Of a DNA stretch of 64,000 bases, positions 2,651 through 48,903 are shown piece by piece. Below the pieces are notes generated by a model. The model had not been told where the DNA came from. It did no database searches and saw only the letters and a list, made by a program, of their open reading frames with translations. Both the position numbers and the translations under genes were made by a program. The stretch lies in NCBI GenBank assembly GCA_038870455.1, contig JAWCPB010000001.1, forward strand, positions 3,734-67,733, given 5' to 3'. Origin of the DNA: Candidatus Micrarchaeia archaeon (GTDB taxonomy: Archaea > Micrarchaeota > Micrarchaeia > Burarchaeales > JACRGF01). The stretch's first letter is position 1; the number at the start of each line of letters is the position of its first letter.

Positions 2651-2846
2651 GGCTTACACCTCTCATGCAAGTTTTTTATCCTCTTTTGTCTGCTCATGTT
2701 TTTGCACCTCGCAGCTCAAGCCAGAATAGCGCGGCTTGAGCTCACCTAAGAACGACTACGCTGACAAGAAGAGAAACAGCCCTTTGCTCCGCGTAGTCAA
2801 ACAACATGCTTACCCGCCAATATTGTGGCCAAACGAATTTAAAAAC

Positions 2847-3704
2847 CTAACGAGGCGCTCGCGCGATAATGATACGCTCTTTTAAATCAACTTTCTTCCC
2901 AGCGAAATCAATCCACCTCACCGTTGCTTCCAAGGCGTCATTCGTTTCTTTTTTCACAAAAACGCGCGCGTCTATTCCTGCCTCCAAAGCCTCCAGCGCT
3001 TCCTTCCTCTCGTCATCCGAGATTTGCGTGACCAGCCACACGTTCCTCCCATCGTGCTCTAGCCTCCCCAGAACAGCTCGCTTGCCGCATTGGTAATCCA
3101 CCAAATAAGTACCTCTGTACTCGACTTCGTCATCGTGATTTGCCACAACCCGAACTTCTGCGAGTACCGGCGGAATGTCTTTGAGCTTTGTCAGCTCATC
3201 AAGTTTTTTCCCAAATCTAGTTTCAAGCAGTTCATCGATTTTATTCGCGTCCACGCCGGGTTTTCCGCAAATCTTTTCTAGCGACATTATCGCCGCGCGC
3301 CTGCAAACATACTGGCTGTCACCCTCCATCGCCTCCACCAGCACCAAAATCTCGTCCGCTCCGCCAAGCAGGCCCAGCGCCTCAAGGCAGTTGTGCCTCA
3401 CAATCCAATCCGTATCGCTAATTGCCTTTTCCCCTAGTACCCCAAGAACATTCTTAGAAGAATAGCCAATTTCCCCAAGCATCATGGCCGCGAGGTCCCT
3501 GTTCTCATCCCCGCGCTTGAGCGCCTGCACGAGCTTTTCGATTTCCTCGGCGGCATTGCCTTCAAGCAGCCTGCGCTTGATTGCATCACGACGCGCTTTA
3601 TAACCAGACAGCAACTTCTTTCTTTCAGGACTAGCTTCGGCGTAAAGATTCCGCCGGCTGCCTGCCACTCTTCCCATAAGTCCAGTTGATAGGCATTCAA
3701 ACAA
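2847..3704 (-). CDS. HEAT/PBS-lyase repeat protein, hypothetical
   Basis: Repeated ...LGEIG...A...ALGLLG... HEAT-like units. No catalytic motifs. Confidence 0.55.
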   Translation of the reverse strand: MFECLSTGLMGRVAGSRRNLYAEASPERKKLLSGYKARRDAIKRRLLEGNAAEEIEKLVQALKRGDENRDLAAMMLGEIGYSSKNVLGVLGEKAISDTDWIVRHNCLEALGLLGGADEILVLVEAMEGDSQYVCRRAAIMSLEKICGKPGVDANKIDELLETRFGKKLDELTKLKDIPPVLAEVRVVANHDDEVEYRGTYLVDYQCGKRAVLGRLEHDGRNVWLVTQISDDERKEALEALEAGIDARVFVKKETNDALEATVRWIDFAGKKVDLKERIIIARAPR

Positions 3705-3716
3705 ATAAATAGCTTT

Positions 3717-23263: not shown

Positions 23264-24678
23264 ATCATCCTCGTGAGGTTGGACACATCCACCTCCTCCC
23301 CAAAGAACCGCGAGAGGTCGCGCGCGATGGTTACAAGCAGGATGAAATTAAAAGCCGGCAGCAGAATGGCCCCAATGAGAATATAAGAGGCCACCCGGAT
23401 AAGCCCAAAGATCGCGTATGTGCCGCCCACCAGCGCCAGCAGCGTGCCGCCCAGCGCGCCCTTGAGCAAAGCCATTCCACCCAGCCTGCCTATCGCCGTC
23501 ATCGATGTCAGCACGGGCGCCAGGTAGGCTACAAGGACTGCCCATACCGTATGCCCAATAATGGCGAGCATTCCCAGCGCGTCCTCTTCGCTCACCGACC
23601 AAGCAGACCGAGGCACCTTGCAGGACGTGCACACGCCGCCCTCACATTCTCCTGAGAAACAATCGCTGCCCGCGTCACATGCATCGCCAGGATAGCCGAG
23701 CTCAAGACATCTGTTCGGCTGGTTTGGGTCGAACCTTCCAGAACAGCACTCCTGCGCCGTGCTGGCTTCTCCCGCAAAAATACATGGGGGGCAACTCCCA
23801 TCTGCATCGCATGTCAGGCCACCACAGCACTCGGTCGTCGAGTAGGGCCTGCACCTGTACTGGGAGGAGAGGGCGCCCATCACGTCATTTGTGGCATCGG
23901 CAATCGCCAGCATGTTTATTCCGAGCAGGATTGGATAGAACACGAACAGCGCCACGGCAATACCCATGAGCGCGCCACCGAATCCGCGCGTGAAGCTGAA
24001 GCACCTCAGCACAACACCCACGGGCAGCACGATGTTGAACATGGATACGAGGATGAACTTGAGTATCTCGGCCTGCACGAGGTTGGTTATCCAGGCGATT
24101 GTAAAGGACTGCAGCATGAGGTTGAGCCCGCTCTCGAGCGCCGAGAGCCCGGCCATGGGCTGGACGCTGACGCCATATCCGCCGGGCTGCATGCCGCTCG
24201 CATAGCTCGTGGCGATTGCCACGCGCCACTGCAGCACAAAGGCGTGCAACCATCCAGTTATTATTTTTTCATTCAGCCACCTCACATACTCAAAGGCATA
24301 GTCATACAGGTTCGGCGTTGTGCCGGCGGGCATGCCGACGAGGTTTGGGTCGAATCCGAAAAGCGCCGGAAAGCTCGGGCTGCACAGCACGCCCACGGCC
24401 AGCACGAGGTTGGCCACGATGACCAGGCTCGCCGCCGTTTGGTAAAACTCGTTCTTCGCCCACGTCGCCGCGCCCGCGATGCCCAGCACGGTTGCTCCCA
24501 TGTACGCGAGCACAAGGATGAAGAAGGAGAGCAGCGCGCCCAGCGTGGCCCAGCCGGCCCACGAGCCCCAGCTCGCCGTTATGCCGCACGCGTACGCGGC
24601 GCTCGTTGAGATGGGTGGGGATATGCTCACACACCCCGCCAGCGCGAATGCGCCCAGCACAACAAACATCCTGTTCAT
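23260..24678 (-). CDS. paralogous polytopic membrane protein P2 with Cys-rich extracytoplasmic insert
   Basis: Lipobox-like LAGC signal. WAKNEFYQ. VLPVGVVLRCFSFTRGFGGALMGIAVALFVFYP. A ~90-aa insert with 20 Cys (CCGGLTCDADGSCPPC...). C-terminal FGEEVDVSNLTRMI. 4-nt overlap with P1. Confidence 0.7.
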   Translation of the reverse strand: MNRMFVVLGAFALAGCVSISPPISTSAAYACGITASWGSWAGWATLGALLSFFILVLAYMGATVLGIAGAATWAKNEFYQTAASLVIVANLVLAVGVLCSPSFPALFGFDPNLVGMPAGTTPNLYDYAFEYVRWLNEKIITGWLHAFVLQWRVAIATSYASGMQPGGYGVSVQPMAGLSALESGLNLMLQSFTIAWITNLVQAEILKFILVSMFNIVLPVGVVLRCFSFTRGFGGALMGIAVALFVFYPILLGINMLAIADATNDVMGALSSQYRCRPYSTTECCGGLTCDADGSCPPCIFAGEASTAQECCSGRFDPNQPNRCLELGYPGDACDAGSDCFSGECEGGVCTSCKVPRSAWSVSEEDALGMLAIIGHTVWAVLVAYLAPVLTSMTAIGRLGGMALLKGALGGTLLALVGGTYAIFGLIRVASYILIGAILLPAFNFILLVTIARDLSRFFGEEVDVSNLTRMI

Positions 24679-24682
24679 GTCA

Positions 24683-25885
24683 TCACACTATCTTGGAGAG
24701 CGCTTGCAGATTGACGTCGGCTCCCAAAATATTTGCCAGTCCTCTTATCGCCGTGAAGGTGATGAGCAGCTGGAGGGCAGGCATGACAAATCCCAGCACG
24801 ACTGTCATGTAAACAAAATAGCCAATGAGCATGATGAGAATGACGGTCAGCGCAGGAATCAGCTTTCCCGTGGGCAGCAGGAAGAGCAGAAAGAACACCT
24901 CCCCAAGATAGACAAAACCGCTCGGATTGAGCAGTGTGGACACGGCGTTCACCAGATGCTCGCGCATTGGCTCAGTGATTCTCTCAGCCACATCGAGTGC
25001 GGTGCAGCTCGGCGGAAGCGGCGCGCCGAAGCAGTACGCCCTTGCCATGTGCGCCTTCAGAAATTCGAACGACATGATGTATGTGAGCGGCCACACCACA
25101 TAGAACCCCACGGCGATGGCGATGAGCGCGCCGCCCGCGCTGCGCGTGAATGGGAACGTCCGCAAAAGAATCCCGACGGGAAGAAAGATCGGCATCATGG
25201 TGTCACGGACAAACTTGAGAAAAACCTGCTGCCCTATGATGCTGGCCAGCGCGAGTCCCTGCCCATTAAGCACTATGGCGAGCGCATCCAGGATTGGGCG
25301 CAGCGCCACGCCCGGCTGTATGGTTATGCCCACACGCATGGGCGCGATGGAGACGGTCGAGGAGGCGAGCACCCCAAATGCTATGTTCATGCCGTTGAAA
25401 ATGATGTAAAATACTATCACTATCCTTTGCGCGATGGCGAGAAATTGCTCGGCAACCTGGAATGCATCGTTGGCGGATACGGTGAGGCCCGCCGAAACCC
25501 TCTCCAGGTACCATGGCAGGTAAAACAGCGGGACGAAAACCTGATCGATGAAGCTGATTATGACGAACATCGCGCCAACGAAAATCGCGGTGGCGACGAG
25601 CTGGTACAGCTCGTTCTTTGCCCATACAAGCAAGGAGGGCATGCCGAAGCCGAACGCCAGCATGAACATCACAGCGACAACAAAAGACGAGAGCAGCAGG
25701 GCGATCATCGTTGGGCCATACCAGTTCACTCTCGTCTCGCACGTTCCCGTCTCGGTGAGGTAGGTGCCCGGGCAGCATCCACCTGGCCCGGGCGGCGCCC
25801 CCGCGCCCGTGCACCGCTGTATCGTGCCGAGGCAGCCAGACAAGAGTATGAGCCCGACCAGCGCGAGCGCCCACGCCCTCATCAT
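24683..25885 (-). CDS. paralogous polytopic membrane protein P3
   Basis: LLSGC signal. WAKNELYQ. FLPVGILLRTFPFTRSAGGALIAIAVGFYVVWP. C-terminal LGADVNLQALSKIV. Confidence 0.7.
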   Translation of the reverse strand: MMRAWALALVGLILLSGCLGTIQRCTGAGAPPGPGGCCPGTYLTETGTCETRVNWYGPTMIALLLSSFVVAVMFMLAFGFGMPSLLVWAKNELYQLVATAIFVGAMFVIISFIDQVFVPLFYLPWYLERVSAGLTVSANDAFQVAEQFLAIAQRIVIVFYIIFNGMNIAFGVLASSTVSIAPMRVGITIQPGVALRPILDALAIVLNGQGLALASIIGQQVFLKFVRDTMMPIFLPVGILLRTFPFTRSAGGALIAIAVGFYVVWPLTYIMSFEFLKAHMARAYCFGAPLPPSCTALDVAERITEPMREHLVNAVSTLLNPSGFVYLGEVFFLLFLLPTGKLIPALTVILIMLIGYFVYMTVVLGFVMPALQLLITFTAIRGLANILGADVNLQALSKIV

Positions 25886-26955
25886 ATCAACCTCGTTAGC
25901 CCGGCGATCTCAATGTCGCCGCCGAGATTCTGCGAGAGTATCTTCACAAAAGATATCGTGGTGATGAGGCTCACAAACGGCACGAAGGTGGCATAGATAA
26001 GGATTTTGGCCGTTTTCTCAAACACGCCCTCGTCACCGATGAGCCAGCTTCCACCGGTGAGCGTGCCGGTAATGGCATCCCATAGCCCGAAGTTTTCGGG
26101 CTTGTGCGGCACAAGACTCTTGCCCAAACCCGTGCCTTGCGCGCTCGTGTATGCCTCCTCCAACGCGCTCGGGTCGATGATGAGCACGTATGTTTTGGCC
26201 GTGGTGGCGCCCACCACGGCGTGAGCCAGCAGATAGACAATGGGTAGCACGAAATAGACGCCTATGGCCACCGCCATGAGCAGTCCCCCGAGCCTTCGCG
26301 TCATGAAGAACGAGCGCAGCACAATGCCGAGCGCCAGTAGCGTCGGATACAGCGAGAACATCGTCAGATCGAAAAAGACCTCAACGGCCTTCATGACTAT
26401 CATGACCTTGGTGATGAGGTCAAACGTGGTGTTGAGGCTGTCGGTGATGACATGAAAACCTGCGAGCGGGGTGAACATGAAGTTGAGCCACGGTGCAACC
26501 AGCCCCTCCCAGCCCACGGACATCGATGCCAGCATGAGCAGCCATGAGTTCGTGCGCAGGATGAGTTTGTTCATCTCCCTCAGGTTGGAATACATCGCAG
26601 TCGTGTAGTTGCGGGCCAGCAGGATGTGGCATCCAGTTCCCGTGCAGCCCACATCGGCCGCCAGCGCGGCATCCAAGCTCGTCAGCAGCCCGACGAGCGC
26701 GGCCACGATGACGAGGCTGGCGATTGCCTGGTACAGCTCGTTCTTGCCCCACGTCTTGAGGTGAGCGATGTTGAAACCGAAGCCCACCGCATAGGCTAGT
26801 GCTGTCAGCATCAGCATGATGAACGCGAGCGTGAGCGCCTCGGCCCGCCAGTCCCACGGCGTGCCGCCCCACAGCGTGGTGATTGGCTTTCCCCCGAGCG
26901 TCACACAGCCCGACAGCAGGAGCAGGGCAAGCACGGCCACAAGCACTTTTTTCAT
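25882..26955 (-). CDS. paralogous polytopic membrane protein P4
   Basis: LLSGC signal. WGKNELYQ. LGIVLRSFFMTRRLGGLLMAVAIGVYFVLP. C-terminal LGGDIEIAGLTRLI. Confidence 0.7.
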   Translation of the reverse strand: MKKVLVAVLALLLLSGCVTLGGKPITTLWGGTPWDWRAEALTLAFIMLMLTALAYAVGFGFNIAHLKTWGKNELYQAIASLVIVAALVGLLTSLDAALAADVGCTGTGCHILLARNYTTAMYSNLREMNKLILRTNSWLLMLASMSVGWEGLVAPWLNFMFTPLAGFHVITDSLNTTFDLITKVMIVMKAVEVFFDLTMFSLYPTLLALGIVLRSFFMTRRLGGLLMAVAIGVYFVLPIVYLLAHAVVGATTAKTYVLIIDPSALEEAYTSAQGTGLGKSLVPHKPENFGLWDAITGTLTGGSWLIGDEGVFEKTAKILIYATFVPFVSLITTISFVKILSQNLGGDIEIAGLTRLI

Positions 26956-26959
26956 CGCA

Positions 26960-27898
26960 TCATCTACCCAGCTTGTGTATGATGACTTTTACGGTTGCCT
27001 TGATGAATGTAGTGGTGATCACCATGCTCAGCGCGGGCAGGAAGACCGCCTGGGGAATGACATGGCTGATGGTCAGAAACGCCTTGCACTGCCTGCGCGG
27101 ATCAAAATAGCTGAAAATCCCGAAACGGCTCACATCACCCGGGTTGGCAGGCGTGCCCGGATCGAGCGGCACGCTGCACAGCCCGAAGAGTCCCAGCTTT
27201 GCGCTCGGGTCGTTGATGTCGCTCCAGATCACATCGGCGACCATGGCGTTCATCACATAAGTGAGCGGAAACACCACGTAGAAGCCAAAGGCTGCTGCCA
27301 TGAGGAACGCGCCCGCATCCCTGGTGAAGGAGATGCCTCTCAGCAGAATGCCCGCGGGCAGCACGATTTGGAACATGGTGGCCTGGATGAACTGCAACAG
27401 CACCTGCTGCAACAGCAGGCTTGAGAGAAGGGGCCCGAGGATGTTCTCGAGCAAGTTGATGTTGTTGGCAAGTCCCTTTAGCCCGGCGAGCGGCGCATAG
27501 CTGAATCCCCACGCCGTGGGTCCTATCTGCACCGCGTACTGCCCGATGACATTCGCTTCGTACGCCAACGCAAACAGCTCCATCATGGTGGGCACGGCCT
27601 GCGTCCACACCAGCTCGGTGAGATACTTGTCCGCTATGTCAAACGGATTGCCTCCGGCGAGCTGCAGCGAGAGCTGGCAGGCCAGGCTCGAGAAAAACGC
27701 CGCGTTGGCCAGCAGGAAAAGCGTCAGAAGGACTTGGAAGAACTCCTCCTTCGCCCACGCCTGCCAGCCGGGCCTTGCAAACAGCGGGGCCACCATGTAC
27801 ACCCCGCCGACAAACATGAACACGATGAGCATGGCTACGGCAACGGTGTCGCCAATTCCCGGCAGGGGAGCGCAATACGAGAGAGTTGCGGCAGGCAT
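26960..27898 (-). CDS. paralogous polytopic membrane protein P5
   Basis: The start was reset to the internal ATG (MPAATLSY...), 2 nt after the P6 stop. WAKEEFFQ. VLPAGILLRGISFTRDAGAFLMAAAFGFYVVFP. The C-terminus is divergent. Confidence 0.65.
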   Translation of the reverse strand: MPAATLSYCAPLPGIGDTVAVAMLIVFMFVGGVYMVAPLFARPGWQAWAKEEFFQVLLTLFLLANAAFFSSLACQLSLQLAGGNPFDIADKYLTELVWTQAVPTMMELFALAYEANVIGQYAVQIGPTAWGFSYAPLAGLKGLANNINLLENILGPLLSSLLLQQVLLQFIQATMFQIVLPAGILLRGISFTRDAGAFLMAAAFGFYVVFPLTYVMNAMVADVIWSDINDPSAKLGLFGLCSVPLDPGTPANPGDVSRFGIFSYFDPRRQCKAFLTISHVIPQAVFLPALSMVITTTFIKATVKVIIHKLGR

Positions 27899-27900
27899 GC

Positions 27901-35049: not shown

Positions 35050-35097
35050 CGCTAATCTCCAATTTTGCAAGCCGACGAAGTCATCGTTTGGTTCTGA

Positions 35098-35769
35098 TTA
35101 GCAGATGCTCGTGAAAGTCACGTTCTGCGAATAAGTCCCCGGGGGCGTGCCGGAAGGGGGCCTGAGCTGGAAGTACGCCGTGAAAGAGCCCGAGCCGACG
35201 AGCGAGTAGTACACCGTCGCATCGCTTTCCGCCAGCAGGCTCTTTGAAGCAAACGGTACGCCGCTCTGGTTCGCCCACCGCGTGGCGTTCGCGGGCATGC
35301 TTTTCCCCGCATCGGTCCAGTTCGTTCCCCTAACCAGCACGTCGGCCGCCTGCACCACCAGCCCCGGAACCTCATCGCCGTAGCCCGCGCCGCTCACCAC
35401 GCTTCCCGAAATCCGCAAGCCCGCCCCCTTCTCAACGAAAAAAACGTAGGACCACCCGCTCCAGCTTTCAACGCGGGAATTCTCCACGAGCAGGGATGCG
35501 TTTCCGGCCACGCTCACAGCGAATTCCCCGTCGCGCGATGCATTGACCAGCAGCGTGACGTTCCTCAAAACCAGTTTCCCCGTCACGTTCAGGTTCCCGT
35601 TCAGCACCACCCCGCCGTCCGCGCACGCCTGTTCAGTCGGTACAATCCAATCGCCTTTTTCTGGCGGAGCGCATCCCGACGGCGGAAGCACCGCGGCCGC
35701 GTAAACCTTTCCCCTCGGAGCGGGTTGCAGCAGCCCCGCGCACCCGGCGAGCACGATTGCAAGCGCCAT
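35098..35769 (-). CDS. secreted lipoprotein-like protein with beta-helix-like repeats, hypothetical
   Basis: LAGCAG signal/lipobox. Repeated NxT sequons and GxxxV repeats suggest a right-handed beta-helix. Confidence 0.45.
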   Translation of the reverse strand: MALAIVLAGCAGLLQPAPRGKVYAAAVLPPSGCAPPEKGDWIVPTEQACADGGVVLNGNLNVTGKLVLRNVTLLVNASRDGEFAVSVAGNASLLVENSRVESWSGWSYVFFVEKGAGLRISGSVVSGAGYGDEVPGLVVQAADVLVRGTNWTDAGKSMPANATRWANQSGVPFASKSLLAESDATVYYSLVGSGSFTAYFQLRPPSGTPPGTYSQNVTFTSIC

Positions 35770-35820
35770 CAGTTCCGCGCGTCCATCGCTTTTCTTTAAA
35801 TCCTCACACTATATTTAATT

Positions 35821-38775: not shown

Positions 38776-39435
38776 ATGGCAAACAATCATCCAAGCCTGA
38801 GGTTCATTGAAGACGTTCTCCTCGCTTCGTTCGGCGTGGCCATCGCTGCGCGCGGGCTCGCTGAACTCTATTATACTCTTTTCAGAACATTCGCCCTAGC
38901 GAACGACTCTATCCGCATCAGCGAAGCGCTTGGCTGGCTGCTCCCGCCCGCAGGCCTGGCCGCCGCCCACATCAGCGTAGGTGTTGCGGCCGCAGTCATC
39001 GCCGCTAGGACAGGGAAATTCGAGGAAACCTCGTCGCTCGTCACGTCGGCCTTCGTGGCGCGCTTCTGGCCCATCCCGGTTCTTGCGGCCGTGGGGGCAG
39101 TCGTATCGCTTATTCTCGGCATTATTGCCAGGGCGTTCGTCGCCCTCCCGCCCGGCTCTAGGCCAGAGACCTTCCTACTGCCCGCCGCCCTGCTGATCAC
39201 CGGCGGGCTCGGGTGCATGGCCGGAACTTACTTCGGAGTTTATTTCGAGGCCAAGCCGGATGAAGCCAGGAGGCACAGGTGGTTTGCCATCCCGTACGCG
39301 CTCGTGGGAGGATTGGGCGCAGGCCTCGTGCTCGCCAGCCTGGAGCTGGAATCCGCCCCCCTGCTCCTCTCCGGCTCCCTGCTCCTTGGCCTCTTCCTCC
39401 GCTACGCCTTTCTCAACTACCTGCACGGGAAATGA
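38776..39435 (+). CDS. integral membrane protein, hypothetical
   Basis: Six predicted TM helices. No known motif. Confidence 0.45.
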   Translation: MANNHPSLRFIEDVLLASFGVAIAARGLAELYYTLFRTFALANDSIRISEALGWLLPPAGLAAAHISVGVAAAVIAARTGKFEETSSLVTSAFVARFWPIPVLAAVGAVVSLILGIIARAFVALPPGSRPETFLLPAALLITGGLGCMAGTYFGVYFEAKPDEARRHRWFAIPYALVGGLGAGLVLASLELESAPLLLSGSLLLGLFLRYAFLNYLHGK

Positions 39436-39973
39436 GCGCAATCTTCCTGAAGTTCTCCTCCATCCTCCTTCTTATTTTCGGAAACCTCATCCCGGCCGCG
39501 GGATGAAAGGTGGCAAAAAATTTTCTCCCTTCTTTCTCGACAACCTTCCCTGCGACCTCCCCAAGTTTTTTCCCAAGCACATCGGCAACCGCCACTTCCC
39601 CTAATAATATAATCAGTCTCGGGTTCACGGCCTCGATTTGCGCCTTCAGGTAAGAGAGGCACGCGGCCAGCTCGTCAGCCCTCGGCTTCCTGTTCTTCGG
39701 CGGAAAGCACTTTACTGCCGAAGTTATGAATACTCCGCTCCGCTCTATCCCCGCCTTTACCAGCAGTTTATCCAAAAACCTCCCAGCCATTCCCACGAAA
39801 GGCTTTCCGCTCTCGTCTTCTCTCCTGCCCGGCGCTTGTCCCACGAAAAAAAGTTTCGCACCCGCTGGCCCTTCCCCGGGCACGGCCTTTTTCCTTGACT
39901 TGGAGAGCCTGCACAAGGAACACGCCCGAATCTGCCTTGCCAGCTCCTCCAGCCTATTTTCAACCTGCTTCAC
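39413..39973 (-). CDS. udg: uracil-DNA glycosylase, family 4 (Fe-S)
   Basis: CxxC N-terminus, GEGPAGAKLFFVGQAPG (motif A), and HPAA (motif B). Confidence 0.88.
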   Translation of the reverse strand: MKQVENRLEELARQIRACSLCRLSKSRKKAVPGEGPAGAKLFFVGQAPGRREDESGKPFVGMAGRFLDKLLVKAGIERSGVFITSAVKCFPPKNRKPRADELAACLSYLKAQIEAVNPRLIILLGEVAVADVLGKKLGEVAGKVVEKEGRKFFATFHPAAGMRFPKIRRRMEENFRKIALISRAGS

Positions 39974-40413
39974 GCAACTCCACCATGTTTCAAAAAACTA
40001 TTAGATTTTTCTAATAATCTTTTTGCATTTTCAAAAGTAAGCTTCTCCAAAGCCTTTTTGAAAGGCAGCCACTCAAAACCAATATGCTCAAAAGAAAGCT
40101 TGACCTCCTTTTGTTTTGTCTCAGCGAGCTGGAAATAAACAGTCTTGGCAACCGTTTTTCCTTCTCTTCTAAAAAAATATTTGAGCTTCTCGCGAAAACC
40201 CGGAACAAATTCCACATCAGTTATTCCAGTTTCCTCCGCGATCTCCCTCCTCGCCGTCTCCTCTACGCTCTCGCCTTTTTCAATCTTCCCCTTTGGAAAA
40301 TCCCAATGCCCTTCTTCATAATGCAGGATGAGGTAGAGGATCTGCCCACCTTCTCTCCTGAAGACAATCGCGCCTGAAGAAAACTCGAGCGGCACGTTGC
40401 TCTTTTGATTCAT
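39970..40413 (-). CDS. NUDIX hydrolase
   Basis: Nudix box GKIEKGESVEETARREIAEETG. Markedly AT-rich relative to its surroundings. Confidence 0.85.
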   Translation of the reverse strand: MNQKSNVPLEFSSGAIVFRREGGQILYLILHYEEGHWDFPKGKIEKGESVEETARREIAEETGITDVEFVPGFREKLKYFFRREGKTVAKTVYFQLAETKQKEVKLSFEHIGFEWLPFKKALEKLTFENAKRLLEKSNSFLKHGGVA

Positions 40414-40568
40414 AACTTTTAAATTCCTGGATGTCCGCGCTGACAGAAAGTTAGGAAGCTTTTAACACCACTTCAGTAAACTCATTATCAAGTCTGGTTT
40501 TTTCAAAACTTCTTATGGTTCACTGCTACAGTGTTAAGCGGGTTTTATGGCACGTGGAAGCACGCTTA

Positions 40569-41855
40569 TCAGGTGTTTGAGCTTAAAGATGGGCAATGTC
40601 CTTTAATTAGTTTACTGATACGGTATTCCCAGGCACATTCAATAAAACGAGCTATAATTATTGCGGAGTTTTGAATGGCCCGTGGAACGAGTACGTTTGC
40701 CTGCTTAAAGCATTCCTCATCGCTTAATTTTCCAATTTTATTTTGATACGGATCAGTGCCGGGCACATCAACGCTCCTGAACTCTTGCGTCTCTCTTGCC
40801 ATATTGTCAACAAAATCAGCGAGTTTTTCCATAGCATTCTCCCAAGTCCAGCTGGGGTTCTCTTTCGGCGGTTCTAGGGGACCGCTATCCCAAATAGTTA
40901 TGTTCATTTTTCCCCTTCCGCGCCTAATATCAGGATAATCCCTCTTCTTTAGCCATTGCTCGAGCGAATCGAGTTTTCCAAAAAATACCGTTGGACCATG
41001 AACATCATTGTGCACATGGGCGGGCACGTGGAGATCGGCTATAAGATGGAGGATGTGGCCGAGCACGCAAAAGGCCTCTGACTTTTCGCCATTCGCATAC
41101 AGTTCCATCCCCCAATGCCAGAAAATTTTTATCCTGTCAAGCGCGCTCTGGAATCTGATTTCTCCATTTTGAATGTTCAGTCCCCTGTCTCCCTCGGCGC
41201 GCATAGGATCGTAGAAGTGACCCATGTACGGTCTGTTGATGGGATCGGCTTCAATCGCCTCACCTACCATTTTCTTCCATAATTTAGCAATACCCATAAA
41301 AATTCCTTGAAGCGGGCCGATCTTCTGGTTCAAATAGCGCTGAGCAAATTCTCTACCACTTTTGAAAGGCTCAGATGGTGCCTTAACAAACAGATCCTCA
41401 AGCTTCTCACCGGGTCTGAAAATGTAGTCCTCTGCCAGCGCACCCACCATTATCTGCCAGGTGTGCTCAATGGCTTCTGGCTTGCCACTCAGTTTGGCAG
41501 CGTGAAAGGCTATGTACTCGTGGCAGGCTCCGTCAGCATGGCGAAGTTTTGCCACTTCCCGCTGAGCCGCGAAAATGTTGTATGGAGGAATTTCCTGCCA
41601 TTTCGCAATCTTTCTGCTCAATCCATCTGGCAGTGGGCCCGTGCTAAATTTCAACACTGAAGTGAGAGGTCGGCTTTCAACCTCAACAAGGGGAAGGCAT
41701 TTTGCAAATGCGTGCGCTGGCTGAAGGGAAGGTGGAAAGAGTCTATCAAAAACTTGGTTAATCTTTCCAACAAAGTTTTCGAATTTTCTATTTACTTTCT
41801 GTTTGGCCTCCCCCCTCATGAAATTATTTTTCTCGCCAGAGTATTTAAAGGACAT
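40569..41855 (-). CDS. zinc-dependent phospholipase C-like protein
   Basis: Motifs GHFYDP and HILHLIADLHVPAHVHND resemble the Zn-coordinating H/D residues of bacterial PLC/alpha-toxin N-domain (DHFWDPD, HYFGDIDTPYH). Lower GC than the neighbouring genes. Confidence 0.5.
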   Translation of the reverse strand: MSFKYSGEKNNFMRGEAKQKVNRKFENFVGKINQVFDRLFPPSLQPAHAFAKCLPLVEVESRPLTSVLKFSTGPLPDGLSRKIAKWQEIPPYNIFAAQREVAKLRHADGACHEYIAFHAAKLSGKPEAIEHTWQIMVGALAEDYIFRPGEKLEDLFVKAPSEPFKSGREFAQRYLNQKIGPLQGIFMGIAKLWKKMVGEAIEADPINRPYMGHFYDPMRAEGDRGLNIQNGEIRFQSALDRIKIFWHWGMELYANGEKSEAFCVLGHILHLIADLHVPAHVHNDVHGPTVFFGKLDSLEQWLKKRDYPDIRRGRGKMNITIWDSGPLEPPKENPSWTWENAMEKLADFVDNMARETQEFRSVDVPGTDPYQNKIGKLSDEECFKQANVLVPRAIQNSAIIIARFIECAWEYRISKLIKGHCPSLSSNT

Positions 41856-41870
41856 CCATGATTATAGTGC

Positions 41871-42437
41871 ATGAAGAACTTGCTCATAGTGCTGGCCGTG
41901 CTTCCGCTCGCCGGCGCTTCCGTGAGCGATGTGAAATTTTCGTTCATTGACAGCAGTGGAAACAAGGTTGATTTTTACCCGGCTGGTTATTCTGGAAAAG
42001 TTTCGGTCAGGGCTGAAATCAGCGACGCGGCGTATCCCGAGTGGGTGGCTGGCGAGGTGAGATATACCTTAAGGTGCGAACTCATTGACCAGAATGGAAC
42101 CAGGCTCAGGCTTCCGGAGGCGATGATTGGATGCATTGCCATCAGCGGGCCCGGTGTGTTGAAAAACTGCAGGAAGGAAGTCTCTTTCGAATTCAGGGCC
42201 GAATACGTGAAAGGCGGGAGCGTGGAATGCTTTCTTGACGAGCAAAAGGCTTTTTCGAGCACTATCCCGTTTGCGCAGTTTGTCTCCCAGCCGCCCGTAC
42301 AGCCTCCAGCACAGCCGGCCGTACAGCCTCCGGCTCAATATCAAACGCAGCAGGGACCGGTCTGCTGTGCTGGCATAGGCCTGCTACTCCTCGGGTTGTT
42401 TTTGCTTTGTTCCGGGGAGGTGGATTGTCCTTCCTAA
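41871..42437 (+). CDS. secreted protein with C-terminal hydrophobic anchor, hypothetical
   Basis: Signal peptide LPLAGAS, a PPVQPPAQPAVQPPAQ linker, and a C-terminal TM. ~54-nt convergent overlap with lpdA. Confidence 0.45.
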   Translation: MKNLLIVLAVLPLAGASVSDVKFSFIDSSGNKVDFYPAGYSGKVSVRAEISDAAYPEWVAGEVRYTLRCELIDQNGTRLRLPEAMIGCIAISGPGVLKNCRKEVSFEFRAEYVKGGSVECFLDEQKAFSSTIPFAQFVSQPPVQPPAQPAVQPPAQYQTQQGPVCCAGIGLLLLGLFLLCSGEVDCPS

Positions 42438-43760
42438 AGCGTCCTCGACCGCCTCCTTGAAGGCTTCGGGGAGCGTGGGGTGCGCGTGAATCGTTGAAGC
42501 GACGTCCTCTGCTTTCGCTTTGAGTTTGATCGCCAATGCGGCTTCGGCGATGAGCTCGCTGGCGTGGGCGCCGACGATAAGCGCGCCGCACAACACGCTC
42601 TTTTTGATGAAGACTTTCACAAAACCCATTTTTTCACCTATGCATGCGGCCTTGCTGCTCGCTGCGAAAGGAAACCTCCCCACCAAAACGCCGGTTTTTT
42701 CCTCGGTTTTGCCGACGCGCGCGATCTCGGGCTGGGTGAAAATGCAGGCAGGCAGCACGACCGAGTCAAAGGTTGTTTGCTCCCCCATGATGTTCTCCGC
42801 GGCGACTACTCCCTGTGCGCTGGCTTCGTGCGCGAGCCTTCCACCCGCGGCATCGCCAATGGCATAGATGTTTGGAATGTTTGTCTGCATGCGCGCGTTC
42901 GTTTTGATCCCCCGCCCGTCGAATGCCACACCAACCGCCCGCAAGCTCGCCTCGTCGATATCTGGCTTTCTGCCGATGGCCACGAGAATCTTCTCAGCCT
43001 CCACTTTCTCTCCGCCAGCAATGATCGTTTCTCCATCAATTTTCTCGACTCTTTTTCCCAACACAAAATGCACGCCCGCGCGCTTGAGGGAGTTGAAGAG
43101 AAGCTGGGAGGCTTCAGCGTCCTCGAAAGGGAGAATGCTGTCGGCCATCTCAATGACCGTCGTCTTCACGCCGAGCGCGCTGAACGCGCACGCGAACTCA
43201 ACACCTTCAACTCCGCCGCCGATGACTGCGATGGACTCCGGCTTCTCGCTTAGGCTCCATATTGTTTCGCTCGAGAGAATGTTTCCGCCGAAGCGGGCGA
43301 AAGGAAGCTCGGTGGGCAGCGAGCCTGTTGCGATGACAATATTATTTGTTTGAAGCTGCCTGCCTGCGGCTGCGACAGTGTTTCTTGACTTGATAACGCC
43401 GGTTCCTTGAATTATTTCGACGCCGTTGCTCTGGAGGAGGAGCTCTACGCCTTTCGAGAGGCTGGCCGCGATGGCACTCGCGCGCTTCATGGTTGCAGCA
43501 AAATCAACGGAGGCCGTTGCGTTGATGCCGAATGCCTTTGCCCTGCCTATTTTTTCGGCGAGCTCCGCCGATGCGAGCAGGGCTTTTGTGGGAATGCAGC
43601 CCGTGTTTGTGCAGGTTCCGCCCAGCTTCGCCCTTTCCACGAGCGCGACCTTTCCGCCGAGCTGTGCGGCGCGAATGGCGCAGACATACCCGCCCGGCCC
43701 TCCGCCGACCACGACGGCGTCAAAAGGCAAGGCCTCACCTGTTAGACCCTGTTCAGCCAC
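42384..43760 (-). CDS. lpdA: dihydrolipoyl dehydrogenase (E3 / glycine-cleavage L-protein)
   Basis: FAD motif VVGGGPGGY, redox-active disulfide GGTCTNTGCIPTK, NAD-binding motif (GGGVEGVE), and C-terminal HAHPT...E. Confidence 0.92.
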   Translation of the reverse strand: MAEQGLTGEALPFDAVVVGGGPGGYVCAIRAAQLGGKVALVERAKLGGTCTNTGCIPTKALLASAELAEKIGRAKAFGINATASVDFAATMKRASAIAASLSKGVELLLQSNGVEIIQGTGVIKSRNTVAAAGRQLQTNNIVIATGSLPTELPFARFGGNILSSETIWSLSEKPESIAVIGGGVEGVEFACAFSALGVKTTVIEMADSILPFEDAEASQLLFNSLKRAGVHFVLGKRVEKIDGETIIAGGEKVEAEKILVAIGRKPDIDEASLRAVGVAFDGRGIKTNARMQTNIPNIYAIGDAAGGRLAHEASAQGVVAAENIMGEQTTFDSVVLPACIFTQPEIARVGKTEEKTGVLVGRFPFAASSKAACIGEKMGFVKVFIKKSVLCGALIVGAHASELIAEAALAIKLKAKAEDVASTIHAHPTLPEAFKEAVEDALGRTIHLPGTKQKQPEE

Positions 43761-44461
43761 TCCTCCGTGGCGTATTTGGTCTCTGCCAGCTCAGCCGCCC
43801 TTTCAAGTTCTTCTTTCGTGGGCTTGCTGGGCTCGAGCTGCGCGCCGAAGTGCGAGGAGAAGCCCCTTTTCAGCGCTTCCGCGACTTCTCCGAATTCCCT
43901 GTCCAGGCCGGTCACGCGCTCCTTCACGTTCTGGATGAGCTTGCCCCTCATCTTCTCATCGGGAACCTTGAGGAGGGAAAACATTTTCTCCACATCAACT
44001 TTCAGGAGAATCGTCCCGTGCTGGAGGAGAACTCCCTTTCTCCTCGTCTGTGCATTGCCGGAGAATTTCCTTCCGTTGCAGACCAGGTCGTTCAGGGGAA
44101 CGAACTGGCCTTGAACGCCGATGCCGGCCAAGCCTTTAAGGATGGCGTCGCACACAAGGCGATACGACGCGCGGATGTCAGCCGGATAGCTGCGGGTGAT
44201 GAATGAGTAAGTGAGTTCTGCGTCGTGGAAAACCGCTCCCCCACCAGTAATCCTTCTGACGACATCGACTCCAAGTTCTTCGCACTTTGCCACATCAACC
44301 TCTTCGGAAAGCCTCTGGAAATAGCCTATGGAGACAGCGGGCGGGTTCCACGCGTAAAGGCGCAGCGAAGGAACGTCGCCCGCCTGTTCCATCATGGCCT
44401 CGTCAAGCGCCATGTTCCAGAAGGCGTCATGCGAGCCTGTTTCGAGGAGCCTGATTCTCAA
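43742..44461 (-). CDS. lplA: lipoate-protein ligase A, catalytic N-terminal domain (LplA-N)
   Basis: RIRLLETGSHDAFWNMALDEAMM... and the K-containing RRITGGGAVFHD region of LplA. Probable TTG start 4 nt after the lplA-C stop. The ORF-track start at 44518 would overlap the upstream gene. Confidence 0.8.
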   Translation of the reverse strand: MRIRLLETGSHDAFWNMALDEAMMEQAGDVPSLRLYAWNPPAVSIGYFQRLSEEVDVAKCEELGVDVVRRITGGGAVFHDAELTYSFITRSYPADIRASYRLVCDAILKGLAGIGVQGQFVPLNDLVCNGRKFSGNAQTRRKGVLLQHGTILLKVDVEKMFSLLKVPDEKMRGKLIQNVKERVTGLDREFGEVAEALKRGFSSHFGAQLEPSKPTKEELERAAELAETKYATEEWLNRV

Positions 44462-44465
44462 TGCA

Positions 44466-44738
44466 TCACCTGCAGGCGGCCAGCACGGCCTGCGCCAGCT
44501 GCGCCGCATCAAACCCATACGCTTCCACGCCCGGGCGCTGGAGAAAGGCCTCCGCCTTTTTCTTTATTTCCTCCTCGTTCACAGGCGTTCCCTCAAGCGC
44601 CTTCTCCAGCTCGGCGATGGCGTCCTCTGGGTAGAAAAAGAAGTCTCCAGTGATTTTAATGCGGCGAATGACCTCGTCGAACTCCACGAAAATCTTGAGG
44701 AGTTTGCCTGCCTTGAAAACGCCCTTTCCACTCCTCAT
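44466..44738 (-). CDS. lplB: lipoate-protein ligase A, C-terminal accessory domain (LplA-C/LplB), separately encoded
   Basis: 90 aa. [18 protein letters not shown] resembles the stand-alone LplA C-domain seen in Thermoplasma-type split LplA. Confidence 0.7.
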
Positions 44739-46144
44739 CCCACCTCACCCTGCCATCTGAGGTTCGGCTGTCTCGCCGCGAGCACGCCGTCAAGCCTCCC
44801 AACAGGCGTGGTCTGTGGAGCTTGCCTGAGCAGCTCCGGGTTTGATTCAGCCTCCTGCGCTATTTTAATCATCGCATCCGCGAACGCGTCGAGCGTTGCC
44901 CTGCTCTCGGTTTCGGTTGGCTCAATCATGAGCGCTTCTTTTACAATGAGCGGGAAATAGATTGTGGGCGCATGGAAGCCATAGTCGAGCAGCCTCTTCG
45001 CGATGTCCATGGTGTGAATTCCTTTCGCGGCCTGCTTTTCTCCCGAGAGCACAAACTCGTGGCAGCACACCCTGTCGAAAGGAGGCGCGTAGTGGTTCTT
45101 GAGTTTTTGCAGGAGGTAGTTTGCGTTTAGGATGGAGGCTTCGCCTGCTTCCTTCAGCCTCGGGCCCAGCGCGCGGATGTACGCGTATGCCCTGACCATC
45201 ACGCCGAAGTTTCCCCAGAACGAGCGGACTTTGCCGATGGAGTCGGGCTTCCTGTAATCGAATGCGAATCTGTCGCCTTTCCTGACTATGCGGGGAACAG
45301 GCAGGTATTTTTCAAGCTCTGCTTTCACTCCGATGGGGCCCGAGCCCGGCCCTCCGCCTCCGTGCGGAGTGGAGAAGGTCTTGTGGAGATTGACGTGAAT
45401 CAAGTCAAACCCCTGGTCGCCCGGCCTGGTAAGGCCGAGCATGGCATTGAGGTTCGCTCCGTCGCAGTAGAAGAGAGCGCCCGCCTCATGCAGGATGCGC
45501 GCGATTTCCGAAATGTTCTCGTCAAAGAGGCCGAGCGTGTTCGGGTTTGTCAGCATAAGCATGGCGGTGTCGCCGTCAACGATGCGTTTCAGCTCAGCGA
45601 TGTCCACCCCACCCCTGGCATCGCTCTTCACGGTGACGACCGCGAACCCGCACGTGGCGGCCGAGGCCGGATTGGTGCCGTGCGCGCTGTCCGGCAGGAT
45701 GACCTTGCTTCTTTTTCCATTGAAGTGCTTTTTCGCAATCATGCAGGCGGTGAGCTCGCCGTGCGCGCCCGCGGCCGGCTGAAGCGAGAATGCGTCCATG
45801 CCGGTGATTTCGCAGAGATAACGCTCGAGCTCCCACATCAACTCAAGCGCGCCCTGGACTGTTTCTTCAGGCGCGAGCGGGTGGAGGCCGGAAAAGCCGG
45901 GCAGGCGGCAGGCGTCTTCATTGATTTTGGGATTGTATTTCATCGTGCAGGAGCCGAGGGGATAGAAGCCCGAATCCACGCCGTAGTTTTTCTGCGAAAG
46001 AGCCAGGTAGTGGCGGATCACATCGACTTCGCCGGCCTCAGGCATGGGGAGCTTTTCCCGCAGGAGTTCCTTCGGCAGATCAACTTCGTCCGCTTCTGGA
46101 ACGTGCTCGGCCGGCTTGCTCTTCAGTTCGAACAGGAGCTTCAT
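44735..46144 (-). CDS. gcvPB: glycine dehydrogenase (decarboxylating) subunit 2 (P-protein C-terminal half)
   Basis: PLP region [18 protein letters not shown]. 469 aa. Confidence 0.93.
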
Positions 46145-47412
46145 GCAACCGCCTTCTCGACCACCGCAACAAATTCGTCGATGTCCGCGCTGGTCGTGGT
46201 TTCAGTTGCGCACAGCAGCCACTCCCGCCTGCCGAGCGGAATCCCTCCGAGCATGCCTTTCTTCAGCAGAGCTTTGTTGAGTTTCTTTGGCGAGACGGGC
46301 GTGCTGGCCGCAAACTCGTTGTAAAAAGGCTTGTCATGGAGGAGGGCGAAGCCGAGGGAGGCAAGCCTGCTCTGGAGCTCGTGCGCTCTCTTGAAGGAAA
46401 GCGCGGCAACCCTTTGGAGACCGCTTTTTCCGAGGAGAGCCAGGTAAATCGTTGCGGCGAGCGTGTTGAGCGCGTGATTGGTGCAGATGTTTGAAGTCGC
46501 CCTCTCCCTCCTGATGTGCTGCTCCCTCGCCTGCAGGGTGAGGATGAAGCCCCTCTGCCCTCTTGAATCGACAGTCATCCCGGCAAGCCTTCCTGGCATC
46601 TTCTTTACGTGCTCGCTCCTCACCGCCATGAAAGCACCGTAGGGGCCTCCGAAATTCAACCCGTTGCCAAAGGCCTGCAGCTCTCCGACAACAATATCCG
46701 CGCCATAGTCCCCCGGGGGCTTGAGGAGCGCGAGCGAAGTCGGGTCAGAGACCGCCACAACCAAAAGCGCGCCCGCCGCGTGTGCGGCTTCAGCGAATTC
46801 ATCCACCCTCTCAATGCAGCCGAAGTAATTCGGATTCTGAACAATCGCGCATGCGGTTTTTTCTGAAATCTTTTTTCCAATCCTGAAGCCGCATGATTTC
46901 GCATATGTTCTCAGCGTCTTTTCGTATTCCGGGTTCAGCGGGTTGGCGATGAACGCCTCGCGCCTGCCCGTTTCCGAGCGCGAGAGGAAAAAGGCTTCGG
47001 CGAGCGCAGAGCCGGTCTCGTAGAGGCCTGCGTTTGCGGCGTCCATGCCGGTGAGCAGACAGATCAGAGTCTGGAATTCGTAGATTGCCTGGAGAGTCCC
47101 CTGGCTGACCTCCGGCTGGTATGGTGTATAAGCGGTGTAGAATTCTCCCCTGAGGAGAAGGTGATTGACTGCGGAAGGAATGTAATGATTATAGGCCCCC
47201 CCTCCACGGAAAACCCGCAGGAGCTTGTTCTTCTCACTCAGGGCCTTCATATGGCTTGCGAGCTCCAGCTCGCTCATCGGCTGCGGGAGGTCGAGTGGCC
47301 TGTTAAGCAAGGGAGCGAGCCCTGCTTTCTGGATGAGCTCATTCACGCTCGCCGCGCCAACTGCAGAGAGCATGGCGCGTTTGTCTTCTTCGGTCAGGGG
47401 AATGAAGTTCAT
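46141..47412 (-). CDS. gcvPA: glycine dehydrogenase (decarboxylating) subunit 1 (P-protein N-terminal half)
   Basis: 423 aa. Typical GcvPA N-terminus [13 protein letters not shown]...YTPYQPE. Confidence 0.92.
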
Positions 47413-47423
47413 GGCAAAAACCG

Positions 47424-47798
47424 TTAGTGCTGAGGTGCGCTCTTCGTGTATTCTTCGTACGCCTTTTCATCCATCAGCTTGTCGAGTTCTTTGAGGTTGG
47501 CCGGCTTGAGCTTGACCATCCAGCCCTTCTCGTACGGGGATTGATTGACCAGTTGGGGAGCAGTGAGCAGCTCGGAATTCACCTCGACTACCTCCCCGGA
47601 TACCGGAGCGTATACGTCGCTGCTCGCCTTCATGGAATCGACAACAGCGATGGAATCGCCCTGTTTGAACTTGGCGCCGACCTTCGGGAGCTCGAGCGAG
47701 ACGATGTCGCCCAAGGCCTTTTGGGCGAAGTCCGTGATTCCGACAAACGCAAGCCCTTCCTTGATTTCCACCCACTCGTGTTCTTTGGTGAATCTCAT
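47424..47798 (-). CDS. gcvH: glycine cleavage system H protein
   Basis: Lipoyl-lysine motif SMKASSDVYAPVSGEVVEVN. ATG at 47798 preceded by GGAGG. The ORF-track start at 47831 is the alternative. Confidence 0.88.
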   Translation of the reverse strand: MRFTKEHEWVEIKEGLAFVGITDFAQKALGDIVSLELPKVGAKFKQGDSIAVVDSMKASSDVYAPVSGEVVEVNSELLTAPQLVNQSPYEKGWMVKLKPANLKELDKLMDEKAYEEYTKSAPQH

Positions 47799-47817
47799 CC
47801 TACTCGCCTCCCAACAC

Positions 47818-48903
47818 CTACTTTCTTTCAATTTTATAAAATCTATGGCTTGTTGTCCTCGCCGGGAAAAGCCTCTCTCTTATTTTGATTTGAATCTGGC
47901 TCCCGAGAGGCAAATCCACGGGAACAAAACAAAAGCCGATGGGCTTGCCGAGCGTCGGGGAGAAAGTGCCGCTCGTCACCACGTCGAATTGTTTCCCGTT
48001 CACGAAAACCTCGTTGCCATGCCTGGGGACAGCGCGCTCTAGAAGCTCAAACCCCACCAGCTTGCGCTTTGGAGGGTTTGCGAGAAGCGCCCCTTTGCCG
48101 ATGAAATCCCCTTTGTCGAACTTGACCGTCCATGCCAGGGGCGCCTCGAGCGGGGTGATGTCATCCGTTATGTCGTTCCCATACAGCATGAGGCCCGCCT
48201 CAAGGCGCAGCGTGTCGCGCGCGCCCAGCCCGCAGGGCTTTATGCCGAACTCCGCGCCGGCTTCCATGAGCGCGTGCCACATCTTTTCAGCATGCTCGGG
48301 GGAAAAGTAAATCTCGAAGCCGTCTTCTCCAGTGTAGCCTGTCCTCGAGACGAGGCAGGGCACGCCCGCGACAGGAAATTCGGCGAAGTGGAAGTAGGCG
48401 ATGGAAGAGAGGTTGAAATCGGTGAGCTTCTGCAGAGTCGCCTGTGCCTTAGGCCCCTGCAGCGCGAGCTCCGCTACCTCGCTGCTGATGTTGCGCAACT
48501 CCGCCCCCTGCCGATTGTGTGCGTTCATCCAAGCCCAGTCCTTGTCGGTGGTGGAGGCGTTTACCACAATGAAAAAATCGTCGGCTTTCCGGCGATATAC
48601 GAGCAGGTCATCCACAACACCCCCTCGCTCGTTGCACATTGGGGAGTAGAGGGCCTGTCCGTCGGCGAGTTTTGAGGCATCGTTTGTGATGATGTGCTGA
48701 ATGAAGGCGAGCGCGTTTTCTCCCTTCACTTCAATCTCCCCCATGTGCGAAACATCGAAGAGCCCCACTGCTTTTCTCACGGCATCGTGTTCTTCTATGA
48801 TGGAGGAATACTGTACGGGCATCTCCCACCCGCCGAATTCCACCATCTTGGCGCCCAACGAACGATGGATGGCGTTGAACGGTGTGCTCTTCATCGGAAC
48901 CAC
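47818..48903 (-). CDS. gcvT: aminomethyltransferase (glycine cleavage T protein)
   Basis: TPFNAIHRSLGAKMVEFGGWEMPVQY, GcvT fold. 361 aa. Confidence 0.92.
   Translation of the reverse strand: MVPMKSTPFNAIHRSLGAKMVEFGGWEMPVQYSSIIEEHDAVRKAVGLFDVSHMGEIEVKGENALAFIQHIITNDASKLADGQALYSPMCNERGGVVDDLLVYRRKADDFFIVVNASTTDKDWAWMNAHNRQGAELRNISSEVAELALQGPKAQATLQKLTDFNLSSIAYFHFAEFPVAGVPCLVSRTGYTGEDGFEIYFSPEHAEKMWHALMEAGAEFGIKPCGLGARDTLRLEAGLMLYGNDITDDITPLEAPLAWTVKFDKGDFIGKGALLANPPKRKLVGFELLERAVPRHGNEVFVNGKQFDVVTSGTFSPTLGKPIGFCFVPVDLPLGSQIQIKIRERLFPARTTSHRFYKIERK

Follow-up and report, generated by a model that had tools for sequence, protein, structure and literature searches.

Whether a short AT-rich patch in a GC-rich archaeal genome marks the arrival of foreign genes, and what such genes might do for their host, is the question raised by positions 39970-41860 of a 64-kb stretch of DNA from a Candidatus Micrarchaeia archaeon (GenBank contig JAWCPB010000001.1, positions 3,734 to 67,733; this whole stretch is hereafter called the window). 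The patch carries a gene for a NUDIX hydrolase and a gene for a protein resembling zinc-dependent phospholipase C (PLC), and an earlier reading of the window, made from its letters alone (the sequence-only reading), had treated the two as a single horizontally acquired islet. We find instead that the low-GC patch is composite and consists of two unrelated genes with separate histories. As a whole explanation, it appears probable that the patch combines an old pair of genes, encoding the NUDIX hydrolase and a family-4 uracil-DNA glycosylase (UDG), with a recently exchanged gene for a cytoplasmic phosphodiesterase of the PLC fold.

Composition of the low-GC patch

The patch has a GC content of 45.2%, and the window overall 58.8%. 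In sliding windows of 1891 nt outside the patch, the mean GC content was 59.2%, with a standard deviation of 2.2% and a minimum of 53.1%; the value for the patch (z = -6.5) is the lowest across the entire 64 kb. The AT-richness noticed in the sequence-only reading is borne out by these figures, and GC content at third codon positions (GC3) agrees with them. The background, given there as ~62% GC, was measured at 59%, and the estimates of ~40% for the NUDIX gene and ~45% for the PLC-like gene came close to the measured 42.8% and 46.5%. The spacer has 40.0% GC. In 1-kb bins, the GC fraction is 0.429 at 40001-41000, 0.480 at 41001-42000 and 0.53-0.65 in the remaining bins, and a 200-nt GC profile places the edges of the trough at ~39900 and ~41950.

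GC3 is 0.453 in the open reading frame (ORF) of the NUDIX gene and 0.478 in that of the PLC-like gene, against ~0.70-0.82 in most genes of the window. GC content at the first and second codon positions (GC1 and GC2) of the patch genes is also below that of most genes, and part of the low GC content is therefore owed to amino-acid content. The biggest deficit is that of GC3, which lies ~0.27-0.30 under typical genes. Elsewhere in the window, positions 2001-4000 have the second-lowest GC content (0.53-0.54) and contain a milder compositional outlier, the ORF 2847..3704 (minus strand, 285 aa, GC3 0.56).

Two genes with separate histories

The locus was compared with that of a sister genome (L004, from the metagenome-assembled genome (MAG) QQ_201907_bins_60) and with L082, a hot-spring contig from JGI that represents a third relative. 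L004 is colinear with positions 29956-52167 of the window, with a DNA identity of 82-88%; its MAG, 1.16 Mb in size with 57.4% GC, is classified as Bailongiarchaeales (GTDB o__JACRGF01) and represents one of the "WAL" lineages (PMC12892359, Dataset S1). Between L082 and the window, aIF2-gamma is 87% identical and the NUDIX hydrolase 84-87%. The lineage is isolated, aIF2-gamma identity dropping to 70% outside the genus. The gene order LeuRS, aIF2-gamma, helicase, UDG, NUDIX is kept in L082; upstream of its NUDIX gene lie two other low-GC genes, followed by unrelated genes, and neither a PLC-like gene nor a glycine-cleavage cluster was found at this locus. Since the patch in L082 has other genes, the spot carries variable low-GC cargo.

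The stop codon of the NUDIX gene overlaps the start of the UDG gene in the window, L004 and L082 alike. The NUDIX gene is low in GC in all three relatives (0.43-0.49), yet its divergence is ordinary; the UDG gene is intermediate in composition (54.4% GC, GC3 0.626). The two genes of the patch do not make up one islet, because the NUDIX gene is tied to the UDG gene and shows ordinary divergence, and the PLC-like gene behaves otherwise.

The identification of a NUDIX hydrolase in the sequence-only reading was correct: the protein matches PF00293 with E = 8.8e-21 (74.8 bits, cut-off 21.1), and its Nudix box GKIEKGESVEETARREIAEETGI, read from the translation, is intact (pattern G-x5-E-x7-REUxEExGU). 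In public records, the protein is named bis(5'-nucleosyl)-tetraphosphatase, as are its close relatives; it falls under the curated cut-off of every NCBIfam equivalog model. Named matches come from Woesearchaeota, Nealsonbacteria and Njordarchaeales, and the closest outside homologues inspected (n = 2, 66% identity) adjoin a gene of a PolX-family polymerase. The overlap with the UDG gene and the PolX neighbours therefore indicate that the NUDIX gene travels with DNA-repair genes, and not with the PLC-like gene. These data suggest that the NUDIX subfamily is a partner in DNA repair or of the nucleotide pool. We read the protein as a small nucleotide pyrophosphohydrolase, with an annotation as Ap4A hydrolase, translationally coupled to the family-4 UDG and an old resident of the lineage, whose role would most likely be nucleotide-pool sanitation or DNA repair. 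Should the NUDIX gene be foreign, it came earlier.

Fold and metal site of the PLC-like protein

The 428-aa protein considered in the sequence-only reading is the translation of the longest ORF; the true start is probably Met13 (ATG at 41819), which gives 416 aa, because public annotation and the ORF in L004 begin there and a conserved TTTAAATA box lies just upstream. The same box is found in L004 21 nt upstream of the ATG, and homology between the window and L004 stops just upstream of it. As read from the sequence, this TATA-like box would imply a leaderless transcript and a promoter of its own for the PLC-like gene.

Both PLC motifs quoted earlier are present in the translation, GHFYDP as residues 212-217 and the second as H270-x3-D274-x-H276-x-P278-x-H280-x-H282. 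A single-sequence phmmer search reached the Bacillus cereus enzyme (PLC-Bc) at E = 0.1, the family profile matched PLC-Bc at E = 4e-4 (hmmsearch), and hhalign aligned the protein to PLC with a probability of 95%. With all three programs, H213, H270, D274 and H280 pair with His69, His118, Asp122 and His128 (PLC-Bc numbering), and these four residues are invariant in all 33 aligned sequences. An extended hhalign alignment of low confidence further pairs H112 with His14, D204 with Asp55 and D296 with Glu146, all three of which are invariant in the same sequences. In the family alignment (A1), 52 columns are invariant, among them H112, E142-D143, D204, H213-F214, H267, H270, D274 and H280, as well as H282-N283-D284, H286, D296 and E299.

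A confident AlphaFold model built from A1 (predicted local distance difference test score 79.4, predicted template modelling score 0.77) consists of one helical domain and a disordered N-terminus, with disorder at residues 1-16, 39-70 and 178-189. The all-alpha PLC/P1 fold was recovered: Foldseek searches of PDB libraries returned PLCs at E about 1e-4, and in structural comparison S1/P1 nucleases scored 12.7-13.6 and nothing else scored above 5.4. This places the protein firmly in the PLC/P1 fold, closer to the PLCs than to the nucleases. The description as Zn-PLC-like in the sequence-only reading therefore stands as regards the fold and the core ligands, and fails as regards the family model PF00882, whose threshold the protein does not reach. 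Weak PF00882 matches were obtained for 32 of the 33 family members (best E = 4.5e-5), and one homologue (P0023) has a precomputed match. The Het-C profile is absent from the Pfam matches at E <= 1 in all 33 members; Het-C is related to PLC and P1 and forms a third branch of the superfamily (PMC3482391).

The catalytic domain starts about 100 residues into the protein, being preceded by an N-terminal extension of that length, and a ~50-residue insertion separates the equivalents of His14 and Asp55; in the window sequence it contains an amphipathic Trp/Lys-rich helix, FMGIAKLWKKMVG. The secreted lipase proposed earlier found no support, since a hydropathy scan detected neither a signal peptide nor a transmembrane segment in any of the 33 family members: none of them has a 19-residue Kyte-Doolittle mean above 1.12 within its first ~60 residues. 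Given the absence of a hydrophobic N-terminus, there is therefore no processing to expose an N-terminal Trp ligand. The C-terminal beta-sandwich membrane-binding domain of alpha-toxin is not present in the protein.

The third metal site is probably built differently from that of PLC-Bc. Of the PLC-Bc ligands His142 and Glu146, the former corresponds to F292 in the window protein and to Leu in most members, and the latter to the invariant D296. The invariant residues E142/D143, H282 and H286 are candidates to build such a third metal site.

Proposed function of the PLC-like protein

Taken together, these features make it probable that the 416-aa protein, soluble and all-helical, is an active metal-dependent phosphodiesterase, predicted to reside in the cytoplasm. 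Its substrate would most likely be a phospholipid head-group ester, cleaved by PLC-type chemistry, possibly at the inner face of the membrane, where the amphipathic insertion helix may dock the protein. Head-group cleavage is favoured because the protein resembles PLCs far more than it does nucleases; provided that it is an enzyme of this kind, we consider a phospholipid head-group phosphodiester slightly the more probable substrate. A bolder proposal, which we regard as speculative and rather unlikely, is that the family represents the first archaeal-type PLC. It would then act from the cytosol at the face of the membrane, with a rebuilt zinc site in which other residues may stand in for the missing Trp1 and His142, and would release the head groups of ether-linked sn-glycerol-1-phosphate lipids. 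If true, these archaea with their small genomes could rework or reuse membrane lipids, whether their own or scavenged.

Several observations tell against an active cytoplasmic PLC. The PF00882 match of the protein itself is confined to residues 254-285, with 12.3 bits against a gathering threshold of 26.8 and E = 0.17. D143, in the motif GAxAEDY, is another candidate for the Asp55 equivalent instead of D204; with Trp1 and His142 both missing, the metal site may differ and activity is a prediction. The hydropathy scan is crude next to a dedicated signal-peptide predictor, and the S1-P1 nuclease model is weakly matched by 18 of the 33 members.

The last point bears on the main rival for the function, namely an S1/P1-type nuclease (a phosphoesterase of single-stranded nucleic acids or nucleotides) working together with the NUDIX hydrolase and the UDG and not on lipids; a nucleic acid would then be the alternative substrate. 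The S1/P1 nucleases share the fold. The protein lies nearer to the PLCs, the NUDIX gene is associated with UDG and not with the PLC-like gene, and no conserved operon partner that could serve as a clue to function was found across 24 loci of the family. We consider the nuclease unlikely, and a PLC-type phosphodiesterase remains the preferred reading.

Distribution of the family and history of this copy

The sequence-only reading had likened the PLC-like protein to bacterial enzymes of a family rare in archaea and taken its gene as a probable horizontal acquisition. The distribution of the family shows that it is not a rare import from bacteria. Searches returned 35 clusters at 41-57% identity to the PLC-like protein, all of them annotated as "hypothetical protein" and every named one from Micrarchaeota; the family comprises ~25 clusters at 50% identity, and among GTDB species representatives, 23 Micrarchaeota carry a homologue. 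One homologue (L007) belongs to a Micrarchaeum MAG. In an exhaustive profile search, 25 representatives reached E <= 1e-30; beyond them, the score plunges from 134 bits to 88. The remaining 2,587 relatives are distant ones that align to the catalytic core only, often as part of very large proteins, and bacterial matches have 26-33% identity over half of the PLC-like protein. The surroundings of the gene are housekeeping and clade-specific, with 2-oxoacid:ferredoxin oxidoreductase genes downstream in one clade and NAD kinase upstream in another, and its GC content is usually that of the host. No description of a zinc-PLC-like family in Micrarchaeota, DPANN or archaea was found in the literature searched. 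The PLC-like proteins are thus a tight, unannotated, Micrarchaeota-wide family that is native to the phylum.

Within this native family, the copy in the window is exceptional. In L004, the PLC-like gene has 45.9% GC and its locus 57.2%, and it is only in the window and L004 that the gene lies ~11-13 points under local GC. At other Micrarchaeota loci, 21 of 22 homologues are within -0.03 to +0.04 of the local GC fraction, and four hosts at 56-59% GC carry a homologue with GC3 of 0.67-0.73. A second transfer was considered at a further locus (L024), where the homologue exceeds its locus by 0.11 in GC, and was dropped since that locus is itself heterogeneous (0.36-0.59).

Divergence between the window and L004 sets the gene apart as well. 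Its synonymous divergence (dS) is 0.34, compared with 0.56 for the helicase, 0.60 for dihydrolipoamide dehydrogenase (LPD), 0.70 for the membrane protein, 0.91 for LplA, 1.08 for the NUDIX gene and 1.60 for UDG, and its third-position identity is 0.83. In a sliding comparison, DNA identity of 0.88-0.94 is confined to ~40650-41780, with flanks at roughly 0.75-0.88. The ratio of nonsynonymous to synonymous divergence (dN/dS) is 0.05-0.16 over all compared genes and 0.14 for the PLC-like gene, which is under purifying selection.

Because its GC content is un-ameliorated, it is absent from the L082 locus and it is younger than its flanks, the gene is best explained by recent transfer or exchange. 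Horizontal acquisition, as suggested in the sequence-only reading, is therefore retained for the PLC-like gene, where it is the explanation that fits best (low GC in both sisters, absence in L082 and low dS), and abandoned for both genes as one islet, the NUDIX gene being coupled to UDG, with its dS of 1.08, and present in all three relatives. The gene would have moved horizontally between the two sister lineages not long ago, or come to both from a shared donor; any direction or donor named for it is putative. It would have come recently into a high-GC, Bailongiarchaeales-like lineage, most simply from a lower-GC Micrarchaeon, transfer within the phylum being an argument of parsimony and not a demonstration. 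The copy may have landed beside a conserved, hairpin-forming non-coding element (see below), at a point where gene content differs among relatives.

This history has its weak points. In a neighbour-joining tree, the clade of the window and L004 copies has 100% bootstrap support, and its placement at most 43%; the phylogeny proposed in the sequence-only reading as a way to a donor lineage thus did not identify one. The nearest homologue outside the genus is 56% identical, and, together with the weak placement, this means that neither a donor nor phylogenetic incongruence is demonstrated. The housekeeping genes that the loci have in common are too few for a species tree, and three contigs of the next aIF2-gamma relatives come from genomes outside the set of PLC-like loci. 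No integrase, tRNA or convincing flanking direct repeats were found at the patch, and part of the low dS could be due to synonymous sites being constrained and not to recency. ARAGORN found no tRNA within the 64-kb window; the sole Rfam match in the 64 kb is a marginal tRNA of 57 nt at 10469-10525 (plus strand, 29.3 bits, gathering threshold 29), ~30 kb off the patch. A virus as the vector was also considered and is disfavoured, since neither the PLC-like family nor an ORF adjoining the patch (ORF188, see below) has relatives in IMG/VR.

One could alternatively suppose that there was no transfer, both genes being vertically inherited and their low GC resulting from local mutational or selective constraint, for example on expression level or amino-acid content. 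The phylum-wide family with its synteny within clades, the tree without incongruence, the lack of mobility genes and the sharing of the patch by the sister species would all fit, and the lowered GC1 and GC2 point partly to amino-acid content. However, the deficit is largest in GC3, the homologue tracks host GC in nearly all other Micrarchaeota loci, including the four GC-rich hosts, and the gene is missing at the L082 locus; moreover, its dS is below that of every neighbour tested, and synonymous change would be expected to run higher, not lower, in a gene away from compositional equilibrium. Vertical inheritance of both genes is accordingly improbable in our view, and recent exchange of the PLC-like gene is preferred.

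A secreted or membrane-attacking zinc PLC toxin of bacterial origin, aimed at a host, would agree with the resemblance of the fold to alpha-toxin and the Listeria and Bacillus PLCs, with the distant bacterial relatives, many within very large multidomain proteins, and with the report of Het-C domains related to this fold in polymorphic toxin systems (PMC3482391), but it is hardly credible for a family without a signal peptide, a transmembrane segment or an alpha-toxin-like C-terminal membrane-binding domain, whose nearest relatives are all Micrarchaeota, with bacterial proteins far behind, and in a lineage which, contrary to the suggestion of a possibly host-associated archaeon, belongs with the WAL lineages, predicted to be less host-dependent and to encode much of the archaeal lipid pathway (PMC12892359).

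Conserved non-coding block

Between the PLC-like gene and the NUDIX gene, a non-coding block aligns across the window, L004 and L082 (Table 1). It is 80% identical to L082, compared with ~74% in adjoining aligned blocks, which are mostly coding. RNAalifold gave -23.1 kcal/mol for the minus strand, with 33 pairs, four of which have compensatory changes, and -13.4 for the plus strand; this is suggestive of a long hairpin on the gene strand, as predicted from three sequences. The block sits where the relatives diverge in gene content: the gene preceding it in L082 is another one of low GC, and in that contig one more gene stands between the block and the NUDIX gene. The block matches no Rfam family. 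It is single-copy in the window and the loci, and scanning metagenomes for a gapped pattern of 30 bases brought up no copies. Its role could be that of a small RNA not yet described, of a 3' element, or of a hotspot of recombination where Micrarchaeota exchange low-GC cargo genes.

Gene order and neighbouring features

On the minus strand, the genes are arranged in the order glycine-cleavage T, H, P1 and P2, lipoate ligase, LPD, PLC-like, NUDIX and family-4 UDG, followed past UDG by a membrane protein, an MrfA-type helicase, aIF2-gamma and LeuRS. LPD is the final gene of the lipoate ligase/glycine-cleavage cluster and forms the native high-GC flank of the patch. The complete cluster (T, H, P1, P2, lipoate-protein ligase and LPD) occupies 42384-48903 of the minus strand, directly upstream of the PLC-like gene, and provides a biosynthetic or catabolic potential that is remarkable in a DPANN genome.

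The window and L004 differ by an insert of ~555 bp in the window, in whose place L004 has 24 nt from the end of the LPD gene to the start of the PLC-like gene. The ORF inside it, ORF188, overlaps the 3' end of the LPD gene by 54 nt and has no Pfam or NCBIfam match and no viral relatives in IMG/VR. A second window-specific insert relative to L004, of ~724 bp at 35051-35774, lies between the aIF2-gamma and MrfA-like helicase genes and holds an ORF (35098..35769, minus strand, 223 aa) of native-like GC (GC3 0.77) without a Pfam match; L082 has short partial similarity only at this site. At 23200-29300, several long ORFs have GC1 above GC3 and no Pfam match (e.g., 24479..25996 and 26420..26872), and either represent a wrong greedy choice of frame or encode unusual, possibly surface, proteins.

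Table 1. Features of the low-GC patch, its flanks and the related loci (coordinates refer to the window unless a locus is named)
Feature	Coordinates	Strand	Remarks
Family-4 uracil-DNA glycosylase (UDG)	39413..39973	-	PF03167, E = 2.4e-37; TIGR00758, 167.7 bits, above cut-off
NUDIX hydrolase	39970..40413	-	147-aa ORF; probably 141 aa from GTG at 40395
TTTAAAAG box	40417-40424	-	22 nt upstream of NUDIX GTG
Non-coding block, ~115 nt	40460-40578; L004 11262-11378; L082 4080-4198	-	Starts at the stop codon of the PLC-like gene
PLC-fold gene	40569..41819	-	416 aa, probably from Met13; longest ORF 40569..41855, 428 aa
TATA-like box TTTAAATA	41842..41849	-	22 nt upstream of Met13 ATG; read from sequence
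Window-specific insert, ~555 bp	41852..42405	+	At 5' edge of PLC-like gene; absent from L004
ORF188, inside the ~555-bp insert	41871..42437	+	188 aa; signal-like hydrophobic N-terminus, PAQP-type repeats, C-terminal hydrophobic anchor
Dihydrolipoamide dehydrogenase (LPD)	42384..43760	-	Pfam Pyr_redox_2 and Pyr_redox_dim; GC 58.2%, GC3 0.675
Two low-GC genes replacing the PLC-like gene in L082	L082 3214-4946		268 aa and 250 aa; GC 0.48 and 0.465; function unassigned
NUDIX gene with PolX-family polymerase gene	L087 3001-5129; L088 1173-3423		One archaeal-looking contig, one bacterial

Significance and comparison with known systems

How DPANN archaea obtain, keep and remodel their membrane lipids is an open question, and a phylum-wide, conserved and so far unannotated PLC-fold enzyme without an export signal is a concrete candidate for testing at the bench. 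An archaeal branch of the PLC/P1 zinc-hydrolase fold with an altered metal site would also be relevant to enzyme evolution. Taken as a transfer event alone, the finding is ordinary and modest: the patch is small, composite and without mobility genes, and the lineage has already been reported as shaped by horizontal transfer (PMC12892359).

With classical genomic islands, the patch shares a sharp compositional contrast, variable cargo in close relatives and indels at the junction. Unlike them, it lacks a tRNA, an integrase, direct repeats and viral relatives and measures only 1.2-1.9 kb, its junction being marked by the conserved block with its predicted hairpin. The NUDIX protein shares the full Nudix box and domain with NUDIX Ap4A hydrolases and MutT-like enzymes, and differs in that its gene is coupled to UDG.

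The S1/P1 enzymes known so far are exported or carry glycans, and one of their ligands is an N-terminal Trp. The S1/P1 nucleases (5FB9, 8QJL and 3W52; PF02265) are clearly remoter from the PLC-like protein than the PLCs are, both by structure and by sequence. Even to the latter, namely PLC-Bc (1AH7), Listeria PlcB (8CQM) and the N-domain of alpha-toxin (1OLP and 1CA1), identity is just 14-18%. Compared with the secreted zinc PLCs, the protein has no signal peptide, propeptide or Trp1, and Phe or Leu stands at the position of His142. In contrast to the bacterial PLCs and alpha-toxin, it is archaeal, apparently cytosolic and devoid of the alpha-toxin C-domain, and it has features of its own in the extra invariant residues H282, N283, D284 and H286, the N-terminal extension and the ~50-residue insertion.

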